NCBI GenBank assembly: GCA_964016885.1
Contig: OZ024743.1
Span: 375,596,001 to 375,660,000 of the forward strand
Direction: 5' to 3'
DNA from: Eledone cirrhosa
Lineage: Eukaryota
DNA length: 64,000 nucleotides
How positions within the stretch are numbered: position 1 is the stretch's first letter; every line of letters starts with the position of its first letter. Shown here piece after piece: positions 203 to 52,257 of the stretch. The notes below the pieces were generated by a model. The model saw only the letters and a program-made list of their open reading frames with translations. It searched no databases and was not told the DNA's origin. The translations under genes and the position numbers were made by a program.

Positions 203-391
203 AACGAAGGAAATGTGGTAAGGAACCAGGTGGACCATAACGCACCAAAGTACTCAATACTTGAGGTAGTAGAGTGGGTAATAGGAACCAGTAAGACCCC
301 GACAGCTGAGCTCAAGCCGTTTCGACGGCTAATCCAGAATTAGCCTTCGAAACGGCTTGAGCTCAGCTGTCGGGGTCTTACTGGTTCCTAT
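203..391 (-). mobile_element. Penelope-like pLTR remnant ending in a ~53-bp-arm palindrome (281-391) that contains the 3' half of a hammerhead
   Basis: 281-333 is the reverse complement of 339-391 (1 mismatch, loop CCAGA). Each arm carries GAAA-CGGC-TTGAGCTCA-GCTG-TC-GGGGTC (GAAA, stem III, UC site, stem I strand). Flanked by (AT)n on both sides. Confidence 0.6.
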
Positions 392-431
392 ATATATATA
401 TATATACATATTCTGTCATTACTACTACAGA

Positions 432-516
432 GGTCCGACGAGCTTTTGATTCCAGAGTCGGGTCAGATCAATACAGAGCAAACCTTGAGCTGATCAGTAG
501 CGAAACACGCGTCACC
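432..516 (+). ncRNA. Variant minimal type-I hammerhead ribozyme
   Basis: Stem I GGT/ACC; core CCGACGA (CUGANGA with U>C); stem II GCT/AGC with long insert; GAAA-C-ACGC-G-TC; AATAAA at 521. The stem II insert shares GAGTCGGGTC and CCTTGAGC with the 28041 ribozyme. Confidence 0.6.
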
Positions 517-1089
517 AACCAATAAACGTAATGAAAGCGTAACCCTGCGTCCTCGATACTAACGTGAACCTAAACATCGAGTGCTCACTCGGGTGAACCT
601 ACAGTAACTCCGCGTTGCACTCCCTGTATATATGTGTATGTGTGTGTGTGTGTGTGTGTGTGTGTGTGTGTGTGTGTGTGTGTGTGTGTGTGTGCATACA
701 TATTACGTAAGAAATTATGGCCATATTTCATAGCAAGCACTCTCCCACATTGTTTCTAGACATAGATTTTGAATACGAAATTAATTTCTAATGTAAGTAA
801 TTTTTAACAACCGTAATTACCATCATGTAATTGATGTCTCTCTAATTGGCTCTGATGGTGTTTTTTTTTTTAGAAAAATATATTCGCTTATATGTAAATT
901 AATGGACTTCATTATACTAATTGCTTGGTTACTGTACTAAAACAAGAGAGAGAGAGAGAGAGAGAGAGAGAGAGAGAGAGAGAGAGAGAGAGAGAGAGAG
1001 AGAGAGAGAGAGAGAGAGAGAGAGAGAGAACAACAACAAATAAATACAAAAATATTTCATACTCTTTGACCACATCTAAATATATAAGT

Positions 1090-1300
1090 ATATAAATTGT
1101 TGGGTGAAGAAATGCCAAGATTTCCGAGTGGGCGGAAACTGTAGAAGAAAAAGACCAAGAAAATGTTGGGTTGATGTGGTGAAAGATGAACTCCAGAAGG
1201 TGATGAAAAAAGAAAATCCTGTGGAGAGAGTCTGTACTGGAGAGGATTCATCTAATCCATGCAAGCACGGGAAAATAGATGTACAAACGACGATGATATC
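1090..1300 (+). mobile_element. Degenerate RTE-clade LINE 3' end
   Basis: Translation GNCRRKRPRKCWVDVVKDEL resembles the RTE C-terminal R-RGRP-xxW motif, followed by a short 3' tail ending ACGACGATGAT. Confidence 0.55.
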
Positions 1301-47751: not shown

Positions 47752-48145
47752 AACTAAATAAATATATATATATTTTTTAAAATAAGACTCCAGTTGCATT
47801 TTCGATTTCATCTCGTTTTCTTTATACTTTAACTCGTGTAGGACACCTCGGTTATTTTTCATTTTGTAAAAAAACCTCACTTTCTAATATATATATATAT
47901 ATATATATATAAAGAGAGTGGCAGGGAGAGAAAGAGAGAGGGAGGGGGAGTAAGTGGGATAGAGAAAAGCCGACAAATGGTTGGCGGAGTGCTAGTTTTG
48001 AATAAATATATATATTACCAGTCAGGTGAGTGGCCGACAGAGTAAAGGTGTAATGTAGCTGTCTGTTAGTTTTGTGTAACTTGTGAAATTATGTGTATTC
48101 TTTGTTGAAATTATATATATATATATATATATATATATATATATA

Positions 48146-50750
48146 TTAAAATATAAATATTAATAAAATAGATGTTCTTTTGATCAATTACATTTTATTA
48201 TACATATTTCGGATGTACAGCAGTACGTCCTCATCAGATAAAATATAATGATACATGACATACCCTGAGATGTTAAATGGTTAAGATTTAATCAAGGTAG
48301 TGATTAACCTAAGAGAAAATTTAACATATGTACCCTAATTTTGAGAAAATGCGAAAACGTAATAAATTCATTAGAGAATGTGTGAGTAAGAAAAATGTTG
48401 CTTAATGTAACTGTTCTAGAGATTTTAGAATGTATGATACTACGATATATCTAGGAAAACATCTCATGAATCATAACAGCCAGTGATAGCCACTGGAAAA
48501 GGATTTATAAAGAGGGAAAGATAAATGAGGGGTGGGGTGATATATGCAGAAGGAGATTTTTTTCCGAAAGTTAAACGGTTAAATTTGAAAATATTTAATT
48601 TATAATATTAGGGTGAAGACTCCAGATTTCAGGATTTGCTGGTTATTTATATATTAGTTTTATAAATTCGATAAGTGTGTTATCATTTCTAAGCTTCTGA
48701 ATTTTATGAGGGTAACATTTAAAGGATTTAGCTGGCACATAAAGAATGAAATATTATACCGTTGATTATTTACCTAAATTTAAGATACCAACATATTAGG
48801 TATGTAAAGCTTTTGAAGTACTTATTGTTATAAATATTTAAATAACGATTATGTATATAGGTATATATTAATGAGCCAGTATATTTTAGGTAAATAATAA
48901 CGACGAAGATAAAAATAAAATAAGATAATAGATTGAGGCATGTTAAGGTTAAATATACACCTATGTATAACTGGGTGTAAATGTATTAATTATTCTTTAA
49001 CCAAGATATCAACATATTAGGTATGTAGGTAGGTAAATGATAACGAAAATAAAAATGAATTGAGGCATGTTACGGCTAAATATACACCTATATATAACGG
49101 GGTGTAATGTAAATACATTAATTATTCTTAGTTCAGAGTGTACGTTTTCAAGAAATTTAGAAGTTAAGTAAAAATTGTGTATAGGAAGATATAGGGAGGT
49201 ATATATATAGATATATATTAGGTATTAGTGGTGTAGTATACTTTAGGTAAATGATAACAGTTATAATTTTATAAAGTAGAGTTCAACGTGTTACATTTAA
49301 ATACATATATATATAAGAAAAAGAATAATGAGTGCATGGATAATTCCGAGTTCAAAATAATGTCTATAATAATTTTTAGTTTGGATATTTTCTCTATATT
49401 TGAATCATATATATTGAAATGTGATAGATATATTTAAAAATATTTAAAAATATATAAAATATAATATATAACTACATACATATTATAATACATTATATTA
49501 TAAATAAGAGATCAAAAGCGCAGCAAAAATTCACATTTATATATAAGTTTGAATCTGTTTTAAATTTTAGATTTTAAAGTGCAGTAAATATATTTTACTA
49601 TCTAAACAATTATTTTGCAAAGGGCAATTAGTTTTATTTCTACAATTACATTTTGGTTTAGTATCATTTATGTTAACTCTATTATTATGATCATTATGCT
49701 GGTTTAGTTTTAGGATTTTAGTGTCTAATTTGGCATTGTTTTGGGCCATGTTACTGGTTGTAGAATGTGAGAATTTAATGGTATGTCTATTAAAAATGGA
49801 ATGGTATTTATGTTGAGTAGGGAAAGAGGTGTCAAGAGCTTTAAAGAATAATTTTGCAATTGGTGTTTTAACTGCGACCGTATGACTGGTTTAGATCTAG
49901 TTCGTATTCTCGATTTATTTAGCATATGGGTGTTTGAATTATAATTATTAGAGTTTCTCTTATATATGTTATTATTTTTATTATTATTATTAGGAATAAT
50001 AGTTGGATTATTATTATCTACATATTCTATATTATTCATATATCCTGCTCTTTTTAACGCGTTGTTGTAGTATTCAGCGTTTTTATCAAATATAGCTTTA
50101 TTGGCTGATATTTTATTAATACGTTTTTGCACACTATTTACTATAGCTTTTTTTACAGATCTCGGGTGATTTGAATAGTTACTAACATAGTTTAAGTTTT
50201 CATTAGGCTTATGAAAAGGGTAATAGAAGCCGGTGTTTAAGTTAAAGGTAACGTCAAGGAAATTAACTATTTTGGTACCATTTTCTACTTCTAATTTAAG
50301 GTCGTACGTTTTAAGGAATTCTATTATACTTTTCTTAACTCTATTTAGTTCTATATTGTTGTGTTTGACCACCGTAAATAAAATGTCGTCCCTATATAAA
50401 CCACCGGTAATCTCCGGCAGTTTTCTATTTATCATGTTTAATATGAAAATTCCCAGAAGATCTGTGATTTGCGCGGAATCAGATGCCCCCATAGTGATAT
50501 CAAAGTTTCTATCTCTATCTGAGCGTGTCCAAAATTCGTTATTGAAGTTAATAAGAGTTATTCTGGGTGTTAAAATTATATCTATTTCATCCGTGGTTAG
50601 ATCAGTATGCTTATAAGCATAATAAAGGGACTTATTTAGAAGGTTAGGTGTTATGGAAGAATAGAAGCTAGTAATGTCCATCTGGATGAATTTATGGTAA
50701 TCTACTGTAAAACTCATTCTTTGACATAATCATTGAATATTGTTTAACAC
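48146..50750 (-). mobile_element. Second, 5'-truncated Penelope-like element of a different family
   Basis: ORF 49725-50717 contains MDITSFYSSI, ITMGA, GLYRDD, NFLDVT and SNHP; CNCRNKTNCPL at 49567-49749. Long AT-rich 3' region ending in a hammerhead and (AT)n. Confidence 0.85.
48193..48243 (-). ncRNA. Minimal type-I hammerhead ribozyme in PLE 3' end
   Basis: Minus strand TTTTAT-CTGATGA-GGACGTAC-TGCT-GTACATCC-GAAA-TATGTA-TA-ATAAAA. Confidence 0.88.
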
Positions 50751-52110
50751 TTTAATATATATATATATATATATATATAAATATATATATATATATAAAA
50801 AGAGAGATAGATAGATAGAGAGAGAGAGAGAGAGTTAATATATATATATATGTGGACTATATGGTCAACTAACTGTCGTGTTACTACTTATATATATATG
50901 TGTGTGTGTGTGTGTGTGTGTGTGTGTGTGGCTGTGTGTGTCTGTGTGTGTGTGTGTGTGTGTGTGTGTGTGTGTGTGTGCGTGTGTGTGTGTGTGTGTG
51001 TGTGTGTGATGGTAGCTAAGATGCATCCATAGGCGGTATGCCGGTTGAGCACTCTATGCTCTTACAGAGCAGAGTATGATATAATATAAAACGAAAAATC
51101 AGTGATGCATATCAACTCAATTTATTGTGTGTTACAATTGTTTCGCCGGCGGACAGCTCGAGACGTGATCATTGTGATTCTGGACCCGCAGGTTCGGCGG
51201 ACACGACTAATGATTTCGGAGCATATTCTCTCACTGGGGTATCAGACCCTTTGGGCCAGAACCGTCAAGAACTTCATCTACTTCGCGCGTCCAGTGATTG
51301 GCCGCTGGTTGTCTACGTCATCATAATTCTCACCACAGGTACCAGTCCGCTGTCCATGTCTGCTACACTTCAATGAATTACTACTGCTGTGTTTGGTAGT
51401 TCACACATCCACGCACTCACACATCCACGCACTCACACACACACACACACACACACACACACACACACACACACACACACACATAGATAACGACAGTCGT
51501 ACGCATAAACTCCCGCTATACCCACACATTAAGGAGAACATATAAACATATAAACGTACGCATACATTCATCCAGAGAGGCACATGCCCACAAGCCTAAA
51601 TACATCAACACGCACACACACATGCTCATACACATGCATACGCGTATATATACACGCACACACAAACACGTACAGACATACACATAGACCCCCCTCCTCC
51701 ACCCACGCCCACACACATACACACACGTACCCATATATACACGCACAGATACACACTCGCTCGCAAACACGCATATATATATATATATATATATATATAT
51801 ATATATATATATATATATATATATATATATATATATACACACAAACAAGCCCTTTCCCTACAGGGGTGCTTGTACACACACATACACTGGCCCATATACA
51901 CTTTACAAATATGCGCATATTCCCATACAAACCAACGCACGCATAAAATATATATATATAGAGATAAACAGAATATACACACAAAGTCATATAAAGATAC
52001 ACAATGGGTCGTACATGAAAGGATGCATCTTGTTATAAACATGTTTACATATAACAAATATATACATACACATATATATATATATATATATATATATGTG
52101 TGTGTATGTA

Positions 52111-52257
52111 TTTAACATGTCAGGGTATGTCATGTATCATTTTATTTTATCTGATGAAGACGTACTATTGAACTTGATTCAAGTACCTCTGAAATATGTA
52201 TAATAAAATTTAATTGATCACAAGAACATCTATTTTATTAATATTTGAATTTAATAT
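52111..52257 (+). mobile_element. Inverted, diverged copy of the PLE terminal repeat at 48146-48276
   Basis: Reverse complement match: TTTAACAT-TCAGGGTATGTCATGTATCAT...AAGAACATCTATTTTATTAATATTT. Confidence 0.8.
52145..52208 (+). ncRNA. Minimal type-I hammerhead ribozyme
   Basis: TTTTAT-CTGATGA-AGACGTACT...AGTACCTCT-GAAA-TATGTA-TA-ATAAAA. Confidence 0.85.

Follow-up and report, generated by a model that had tools for sequence, protein, structure and literature searches.

Hammerhead ribozyme motifs in the ends of Penelope-like elements of Eledone cirrhosa and the probable origin of their short copies

Hammerheads in the ends of Penelope-like elements (PLEs) have been known since 2014. Metazoan genomes are reported to carry about 2,000-9,000 PLE minimal hammerheads each (Cervera & de la Peña, 2014, PMC4209133), and the axolotl, with a genome listed at 28 Gb, carries 126,247 hammerhead motifs (bioRxiv 10.64898/2026.07.22.740005; for non-LTR retrozymes see also PMC7229834). 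The Hydra clade of PLEs was described from 21 Repbase families and a small number more (Craig et al., 2021, PMC8557442), and split cores 35-50 nt apart were noted in some Naiads (PMC8557442). Penelope has an internal promoter (PMC2377424), and in Poseidon PAc of Anolis two internal reverse transcription start sites define the tail (Frangieh et al., 2024, PMC11167929). Hammerhead dimers have also been described (Lunse et al., as cited in PMC6765202).

Here we analyse a 64-kb stretch of the E. cirrhosa genome (the window), in which all nine complete hammerhead motifs sit in pseudo-LTR (pLTR) ends of PLEs at (TA)n (Table 1), as a preliminary description of this DNA had suggested for most of them. 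They resemble the metazoan motifs of PMC4209133 in being type I, with a short or, in part of the copies, palindromic helix III, a U3-A8 variant and an unpaired nucleotide after position 9, and in occurring mostly as single motifs from truncated PLEs, with opposite-strand pairs 100-700 bp apart and many families per genome. We propose, with a probability of about 0.8, that they are type I motifs in the pLTRs of Hydra-type and Neptune/Nematis-type PLE families at (TA)n, and that the majority of copies are likely inert, having arisen as short reverse transcripts of the element end that were probably made from uncleaved RNA.

Table 1. Elements of the window and their hammerheads (positions within the 64-kb window)
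Feature	Position	Strand	Details
Family B fold-back end of Hydra-type PLE	203-391	-	tail 203-280, arms 281-333 and 339-391
Family A1 solo pLTR end	410-626	+	hammerhead 432-516 with U4C core and extended stem II of 60 nt; GUC site, after 513
Family A2 fold-back	27875-28190	+	tailed inverted arm followed by sense arm; hammerhead 28042-28131
Family C fold-back pair	28205-28815		hammerheads 28462-28428 (-) and 28649-28683 (+), CUU site
Family D short copy	28836-29104	-	hammerhead 28930-28886, TATATA loop, 8-bp stem I
Broken Neptune/Nematis-type PLE	43181-47886	-	RT + GIY-YIG in at least 4 frame pieces, 44608-46931
Broken Hydra-type PLE, 5'-truncated	48147-50755	-	RT piece 49725-50729, CxCx5C linker piece 49567-49890
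Family A3 non-coding element, ~1.1 kb	51008-52057	-	ends in long-stem-II hammerhead, about 51200-51125
Family D short copy with tail	52110-52350	+	hammerhead 52151-52202, TATGTA loop, 7-bp stem I
Hammerhead cores to cleavage sites	435-513, 28047-28126, 28649-28683, 47718-47747, 52151-52202	+	relaxed descriptor
Hammerhead cores to cleavage sites	28462-28428, 28930-28886, 43349-43320, 48237-48199	-	relaxed descriptor

A strict descriptor recovered only five of the nine motifs, so the U3-A8 core and the bulge were admitted. The relaxed version yields exactly nine loci, with the same stem I coordinates as the nine motifs first listed, and the cleavage (NUH) site predicted after 28126 is precisely where a GUA triplet ends. 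The core is canonical or U3-A8 (the latter in 43349 and 47718) in eight motifs and U4C in one (435). Helices I and II pair, stem I being weak in 43349, 28462 and 52151, with pair probabilities of 0.0-0.3 in several copies. This weakness would suit chance look-alikes in AT-rich repetitive DNA, as would the Rfam scans, in which the window gave no hammerhead at E≤1 and two further loci (L137 and L224) gave none at the gathering score. The shuffle and covariation results refute that reading, to which we give almost no credence. Across 300 block-wise dinucleotide shuffles of the window the mean counts were 0.24 and 0.16 and the maximum 3; its reversed and complemented versions gave 0 motifs with the same descriptor; 111 blindly sampled 10-kb stretches hold 106 motifs against 2.75 after shuffling; reversed genome patterns match 0-181 times against thousands of true matches; and the stems covary while the motif keeps a fixed position inside the pLTRs.

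Other structural details given in the preliminary description hold in part. The short helix III is perfectly palindromic in 4/9 window motifs and in 63/106 of the blind samples. The GATC loop is present in the 28649 copy but private to it, the other family C copies shown having GAAC, whose predicted self-duplex is unfavourable (+1.4 kcal/mol). AATAAA lies within 45 nt past the cleavage site in five motifs but not in the remaining four; in 48237 and 52151 it overlaps the cleavage site and is part of stem I. Every host element borders (TA)n on at least one side, but inverted structures, supposed to be the general setting, hold only five of the nine motifs (28047; 28462/28649; 43349/47718, 4.4 kb apart), and two further hammerhead-bearing elements have a short inverted tail piece only. 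As for the two half-motifs, that at 281-391 represents a complete U3-A8 hammerhead, carried by a Hydra-type PLE, of which only the end is present here, truncated and inverted. That at 51121-51156 belongs to a full-length motif with a mutated core, of which it forms the 3' part.

The label "non-coding PLE derivatives" suits the family A3 element and is otherwise overstated. Three of the nine motifs (43349/47718 and 48237) lie in broken coding PLEs of the window, and five belong to families with RT or GIY-YIG ORFs elsewhere. A complete family B motif accompanies a 710-aa ORF at locus L093; RT/GIY-YIG ORFs lie between inverted family C copies at L183, L184, L186 and L190; a Hydra-type ORF lies between inverted D motifs at L188, a position that led us to reject it as a family A ORF; and family A1 is tied to a Hydra-type endonuclease at L034 and L169. 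No coding parent of families A2 and A3 was found among the genomic loci examined. Given these coding parents of B, C, D and A1 outside the window, we favour an interpretation of their short copies as 5'-truncated or inverted products, and the motifs appear to be mostly truncated by-products of coding PLEs rather than a separate non-coding class.

The family B end at 203-391 contains the 3' half only of a U3-A8 hammerhead (GAAA, a 5-bp stem III with GAGCTC loop, GUC) in 53-nt arms that are 98% complementary, its best 40 genome matches being 93-100% identical. We rejected it as one young MITE, since fold-back spacers vary and long coding copies exist. The A2 hammerhead has a 61-nt stem II, a GCGC loop and a GUA site; the family C pair has a bulged nucleotide after A9 and a YY1-like motif upstream in the minus arm. 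Family A3 shows ~1-kb homology at several loci, in tandem at L029, with the best 40 matches 88-100% identical across a 331-nt query and 2,445 first-look candidates. None of 16 A3 cores is canonical, 10/16 reading CCGTCGA followed by A at 10.1, and its hammerhead is likely inactive.

Our clade names rest on sequence motifs rather than a tree. The elements have the organization of EN+ PLEs: RT followed by a C-terminal GIY-YIG (PF01541 E=7.6e-8 and 1.4e-4, RVT_1 below cut-off only), pLTRs, 5' truncation, an inverted 5' copy and a tail at one end. In the broken element at 43181-47886, which gives the stronger PF01541 match and RVT_1 at E=0.007, inverted 589-nt pLTRs (repeat 47302-47886 / 43760-43181, 94%) each carry a U3-A8 hammerhead. 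Its GLKF, DKG and CX4CxxC motifs agree with the GxKF, DKG and CX2-5CxxC linker of Neptune/Nematis, motifs that do not separate the two clades; the linker is also visible in family C ORFs. The element at 48147-50755 has a D-type hammerhead at its 3' end and a short inverted tail piece (50701-50755) at its 5' end. Its RT is 42% identical to the L093 ORF (E=1e-61) and 57% to the L188 ORF, and a Pfam search gave no match. Hydra-type ORFs lack a Pfam match, and the L093 ORF a PDB match, and they are assigned by motif: DKT, RWR, CNCPDRSIC, CNLC and CKH at L093, and the linker CNCRNKTNC in the window. These fit the Hydra description of PMC8557442 (DKT, RW(R), CxCX5C linker, CxxC and CxH, C-terminal GIY-YIG, (TA)n targets, hammerheads, inverted 5' copies, tails), on which ground a Nematis-like assignment of the YRDD elements was rejected. 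The E. cirrhosa families differ from it in having RWR instead of RWK and, for B and D, tens of thousands of copies each.

The hammerhead content of the window is typical for the genome. A large population had been suspected, and five exact patterns alone count 111,664 in the 3.0-Gb genome, with an estimated total of 200,000-370,000; extrapolation from the blind samples gives about 2.8e5 motifs (CI 1.9-3.8e5). The family D TATRTA-loop pattern matches 80,590 times against 181 for its control, the family C pattern 14,667 times and the pLTR U3-A8 motif of the 43181-47886 element 11,046 times exactly, whereas family B has 52,348 exact 24-mer matches but 4,231 complete motifs. Among 51 matches, 19 motif clusters have differing stems round one core. 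The count thus exceeds 111,000, against the thousands per genome of PMC4209133, and is near or above the axolotl total in a genome of 3.0 Gb. We found no report of this scale in the octopus, cephalopod and mollusc hammerhead literature, where larger counts may stand in subscription papers or in supplementary files, in particular with PMC4209133 and PMC8557442.

Where the copies end bears on how they arose. Of 93 aligned copy ends, 75 extend across the cleavage site and 2 begin there, and therefore uncleaved RNA was probably the template, although site-spanning copies could derive from cleaved and re-ligated circles. Family B 3' ends fall at +20 (11/38) or at +98 to +103 (22/38). With fold-back arms counted separately and BLAST ends blurred by a few bases, 5' edges lie between -53 and -11 in family B (46/51, the upper edge at an initiator-like TCATTT at -47), at -108 to -96 in A1 (9/26, TCATTT at -106), at -111 to -99 in C (7/18, a YY1-like site at -95) and at -75 to -58 in E (13/23, with neither motif there). 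A reading of the 5' edges as transcription starts depends on short motifs, and the TCAKTY initiator is a 6-mer that may occur by chance. All shown 5' edges in B and C, and most in A1, abut (TA)n or an inverted arm. An edge at -98 in family D (13/40) was rejected as an element end; it is a conservation boundary at a splice-donor-like sequence.

We propose that PLE protein nicks (TA)n and that reverse transcription begins inside the element, at either of two sites that lie downstream of the hammerhead, which would account for ends with and without a tail. Reverse transcription would often run out of template 45-110 nt upstream of the cleavage site, at a point particular to each family that is probably the 5' end of a transcript made from the pLTR internal promoter, and a second, inverted arm would give the fold-backs. 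In family B this point would lie inside the long stem II, so that >90% of B copies are half-motifs. Poseidon PAc (PMC11167929) offers a parallel in its two reverse transcription starts, AT-rich targets and insertion from unprocessed RNA, with no reads at the cleavage site; it belongs to a different clade, and the data there are in vitro whereas ours are genomic footprints. The main candidates for cleavage would be tandem copies, acting as a dimer via the palindromic loop, motifs assisted by protein, and intact family B motifs. Dimer cleavage requires same-strand tandem copies, and the window contains none; in the transcript of a fold-back, the motif is predicted to pair with the antisense copy of itself.

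It is possible, though we doubt it, that family B half-motifs arose because reverse transcription stalls or snaps back at the long stem II hairpin, instead of the RNA starting there. That hairpin is predicted to be stable, and 28/40 blind family B ends fall at -23 to -53, an interval that covers the 3' strand of stem II as far as the apex, and -54 to -102 holds none; yet A1, C and E also show preferred edges, upstream of their hammerheads, and the equally long A1 stem II is mostly copied through. Less likely still, the short copies could be true non-autonomous elements, SINE-like or retrozyme monomers, with their own internal promoter, mobilised in trans, the ribozyme freeing or circularising their RNA. 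Fixed 5' edges would retain such a promoter, A3 is an abundant ORF-free unit found in tandem, and retrozymes have been described as PLE derivatives (bioRxiv 10.64898/2026.07.22.740005). Non-LTR retrozymes (PMC7229834; same preprint) resemble these copies in carrying type I hammerheads in short non-coding pLTR-related units. They are defined by at least two tandem units each with a hammerhead, an arrangement seen in 2/111 blind stretches as fitting 310-bp arrays with one hammerhead per unit (L135, units 100% identical; L224, 11.3 copies, 99%), but the window copies are solo or inverted, with no such tandem. Moreover, 87/106 blind motifs lack a same-strand partner within 5 kb, short copies share sequence with ORF-bearing ones, the best non-coding candidate, A3, has a mutated core, and the spacers of family B fold-backs range in length between 21 and 83 nt, pointing to independent events.

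Families A and B differ from the hammerheads of PMC4209133 in their 54-61-nt stem II domains, and B also in its 5-bp stem III. Long stem II variants may be present in subscription papers and in the supplements of PMC4209133 and PMC8557442. In family A, 10/20 pairs changed on both sides, a level reached by 0/500 shuffles of 15 chosen copies, but these controls are inflated because the structure was derived from the same, related sequences; the pairs were named by hand because RNAalifold found little structure in 60 copies (-1.6 kcal/mol). A non-circular check comes from family B, in which homology with the 3' half led to the 5' core, and this turned out to be of U3-A8 type, with a stem I of 5 bp; the intact family B motif is predicted to fold as a monomer. 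Tentatively, a broader account may be given: that the copies are a genome-wide fossil record of PLEs inserting from uncleaved RNA, short copies reflecting initiation within the element and run-off where the transcript begins; that this hammerhead population, roughly a quarter million in 3 Gb, is the largest and densest on record; and that an undescribed, covarying 55-60-nt Hydra-type stem II outlasts the core, its persistence past core decay suggesting that the fold serves some purpose other than catalysis, for instance in being recognised by the PLE protein.

Earlier publications already cover the motif type, the U3-A8 core, the bulge, the inverted pairs and the tails; the scale, the covarying 55-60-nt stem II and the family-specific 5' edges appear to be new. 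For the role of PLE hammerheads, the genome supplies >100,000 natural copies from many families, all missed by Rfam, which allow three cheap tests: of origin from cleaved RNA (apparently not, here), of transcript starts as the points where short copies end, and of a role of stem II beyond catalysis. Family B is a candidate monomer-active U3-A8 ribozyme beside a 710-codon open Hydra-type frame, a practical in vitro system. Finally, tens of thousands of near-perfect fold-backs may, if transcribed, be a large source of double-stranded RNA.

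At E ≤ 1 an Rfam scan of the window did not find a hammerhead, and a strict descriptor recovered five loci only. A relaxed descriptor, which also accepted a U3-A8 or U4C core and a single bulged base ahead of stem II, returned nine, all where the preliminary description had placed type-I hammerheads. Density relative to shuffled sequence had been set in advance as a check: against nine observed, 300 block shuffles of the window gave means of 0.24 and 0.16 motifs (maximum 3), and the reversed or complemented window sequence gave none under the descriptor. The finer features ascribed to the motifs held unevenly. 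Every host element does have (TA)n at one end at least; loop III, described as mostly palindromic or nearly so, is a perfect palindrome in four of nine segments; the GATC loop occurs in a single copy, the rest of its family reading GAAC; and AATAAA lies within 45 nt downstream of five of the nine.

The large genomic population that had been suggested is present. In a blind sample of the genome (animal, 3.0 Gb, 1,796 contigs), taken as 111 stretches of 10 kb at round coordinates, the descriptor matched 106 motifs versus 2.75 in shuffles. The stratified genome estimate is 2.8e5 motifs (bootstrap 1.9-3.8e5), or about 2.3e5 without two 310-bp tandem arrays that supply 17 of the 106. Because nine or more motifs per 64 kb has P=0.22, the window is typical of its genome. 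Five non-overlapping exact patterns, with pairing unchecked and inverted pairs counted twice, sum to 111,664 (80,590, control 181; 14,667, 11,046, 4,231 and 1,130, controls 0). The largest printed figure we found is 126,247 motifs in axolotl (available part of PMC7229834); PMC4209133 (in part) gives 2,000-9,000 minimal motifs per genome. Both arrays lie within (TA)n, part of one is inverted, and by sequence they are probably a young retrozyme-like family. Among further hammerhead families, one has a long stable stem III and one a 48-nt stem II.

Features of the window (C4:375,596,001-375,660,000 of G000) and of stretches fetched from elsewhere in the genome (L-numbers)
Feature	Location	Strand	Details
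Family A elements	A1 410-626; A2 27875-28190; A3 51008-52057		
Families B; C	203-391; 28205-28815		
Family D	28836-29104; 52110-52350; 3' end of 48147-50755		
PLE with inverted pLTRs	43181-47886		589-nt pLTRs, 94%; RT and GIY-YIG pieces between
5'-truncated PLE	48147-50755	-	hammerhead 48237 in its 3' end
G|GTATGT, splice-donor-like	52124; about 48265	+; -	family D copies
Satellite, 23-bp unit (~20 kb)	3984-24191		~883 copies, 92% matches
~190-bp interspersed repeat	43753-43936; 33094-33277; 57587-57789; 26712-26911; 32655-32854; 2380-2535; 26497-26697		at least 7 copies
Broken non-LTR retrotransposon ORFs	35045-39616; 52729-55755; 60737-63895		
Composite stretches with near-copies on C4	50889-51375; 27853-28205; 203-626		L026; L002; L015; 0.85-12 Mb off
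310-bp tandem arrays	L135:5969-8047; L224:112-3603		one hammerhead per unit; units 99-100% identical
Further hammerhead families	L136:4195, 6229; L184:3198; L107, L108, L113, L114, L143	L136: -, +	

Microsatellites are abundant in the window. The ~190-bp repeat is SINE-like by size, and one copy adjoins a Neptune-type pLTR; the broken ORFs look R4/Dong-like, Tx1-like and RTE-like by their motifs. The composite near-copies hint at segmental duplication or repeated co-insertion.

The expectation that the motifs mark non-coding PLE derivatives fails for those accompanied by RT, GIY-YIG or Hydra-type ORFs and stands for the ORF-free A3 family. The PLE with inverted pLTRs, which has one U3-A8 hammerhead per pLTR, matches PF01541 (E=7.6e-8) and, below cut-off, RVT_1 (E=0.007); GLKF, DKG and the CX4CxxC linker are present. 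The RT of the truncated PLE is 42% and 57% identical to the L093 and L188 ORFs. Pfam and PDB searches with ORFs of this type gave no match; their DKT, RWR, CxCX5C, CxxC and CxH match the marks of the Hydra clade, which include DKT, CxCX5C, CxxC and CxH in the available text of PMC8557442. The C motif flanks or follows RT/GIY-YIG ORFs in five of six C-bearing stretches examined (L183-L186, L190), the exception being the copy in L187; no C motif was seen in L191. A1 lies downstream of a Hydra-type endonuclease in L034 and L169, and no coding parent was found for A2 (hammerhead 28047) or A3. In L188 and L187 the two outer ends of large inverted units carry family A copies in mirror positions, suggesting a neighbouring repeat brought along by PLE insertion. 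Immediately 5' of D-type hammerheads, diverged subfamilies conserve the splice-donor-like G|GTATGT, and the D-type ribozyme may lie in or at a 5' intron of the PLE.

The 3' half-motif reported at 281-391 is the end of family B, whose long copies supply the missing 5' half (first 30 loci). A 24-mer from it has 52,348 exact genome matches (control 0); complete motifs, at 4,231, amount to ~8% of this count. The complete motif (U3-A8 core, 5-bp stem I, 54-nt stem-loop II, 5-bp stem III, GUC) is predicted to fold as a monomer, with a stem I pair probability of 0.98, and accompanies Hydra-type ORF pieces in five of eight fetched stretches, one ORF having 710 codons. The supposed half-motif at 51121-51156 is instead part of a whole motif of the ~1.1-kb A3 family, with a non-canonical core in 16/16 copies.

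A 60-nt stem II is common to A1, A2 and A3, and A3 retains its pairing despite a mutated core. Covariation across genomic copies, a further check set beforehand, is present in family A: in a structure hand-drawn on 15 copies chosen from 60, both sides have changed in 8 of 12 pairs of the extended stem II domain, and 89% of all cells are paired, with 0/500 shuffles as high. The copies share ancestry and themselves supplied the structure, so this covariation supports the fold and yields no probability.

A family partner lies within 5 kb on the same strand for 19 of the 106 blind motifs and inverted only for 35, with none for 52. No hammerheads are paired in tandem in the window, and long duplexes burying the motif are predicted for its fold-backs; dimer cleavage from these copies is therefore unlikely.

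In family B, 3' ends lie at +20 (11/38) and at +98 to +103 (22/38) relative to the cleavage site, matching a pattern ascribed to two internal RT start sites (PMC11167929, available part). Across aligned ends of four families, the cleavage site is spanned in 75/93, and 2/93 start within 3 nt of it. The 5' ends gather at family-specific positions: B from -45 downward, A1 -108 to -96, C -111 to -99, and a further family, E, -75 to -58. The edge of B and A1 sits on TCATTT, a putative initiator-like sequence. That of C is 4-16 nt upstream of AAGATGGC, which forms the core of the YY1 site by which LINE-1 start positions are set (PMC5381506), and Penelope has an internal promoter (PMC2377424; both in part). 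We propose that initiation would occur internally in the upstream pLTR, followed by run-off at the 5' end of the transcript. Family E, which has neither TCATTT nor a YY1-like motif, runs counter to this, and hairpin arrest would explain the family B 5' ends equally well as run-off. The -98 edge of D also counts against run-off, since it proved not to be an element end and was rejected as one.

The available portions of PMC4209133 and PMC8557442 already describe this type of motif, its U3-A8 variant and bulge, pairs on opposite strands, inverted 5' copies, tails and (TA)n as target, and a preprint, as far as available, ties retrozymes to pLTRs, with one of nine tested dimers cleaved (bioRxiv 10.64898/2026.07.22.740005); the finding is thus real and of a known kind. 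Related literature includes PMC6765202 and PMC6155905 (in part); the available part of PMC13282606 does not mention ribozymes. Within the literature searched, three points appear new: the size of the population, the long stem II variants of Hydra-type elements, with their covariation, and the statistics on copy ends.
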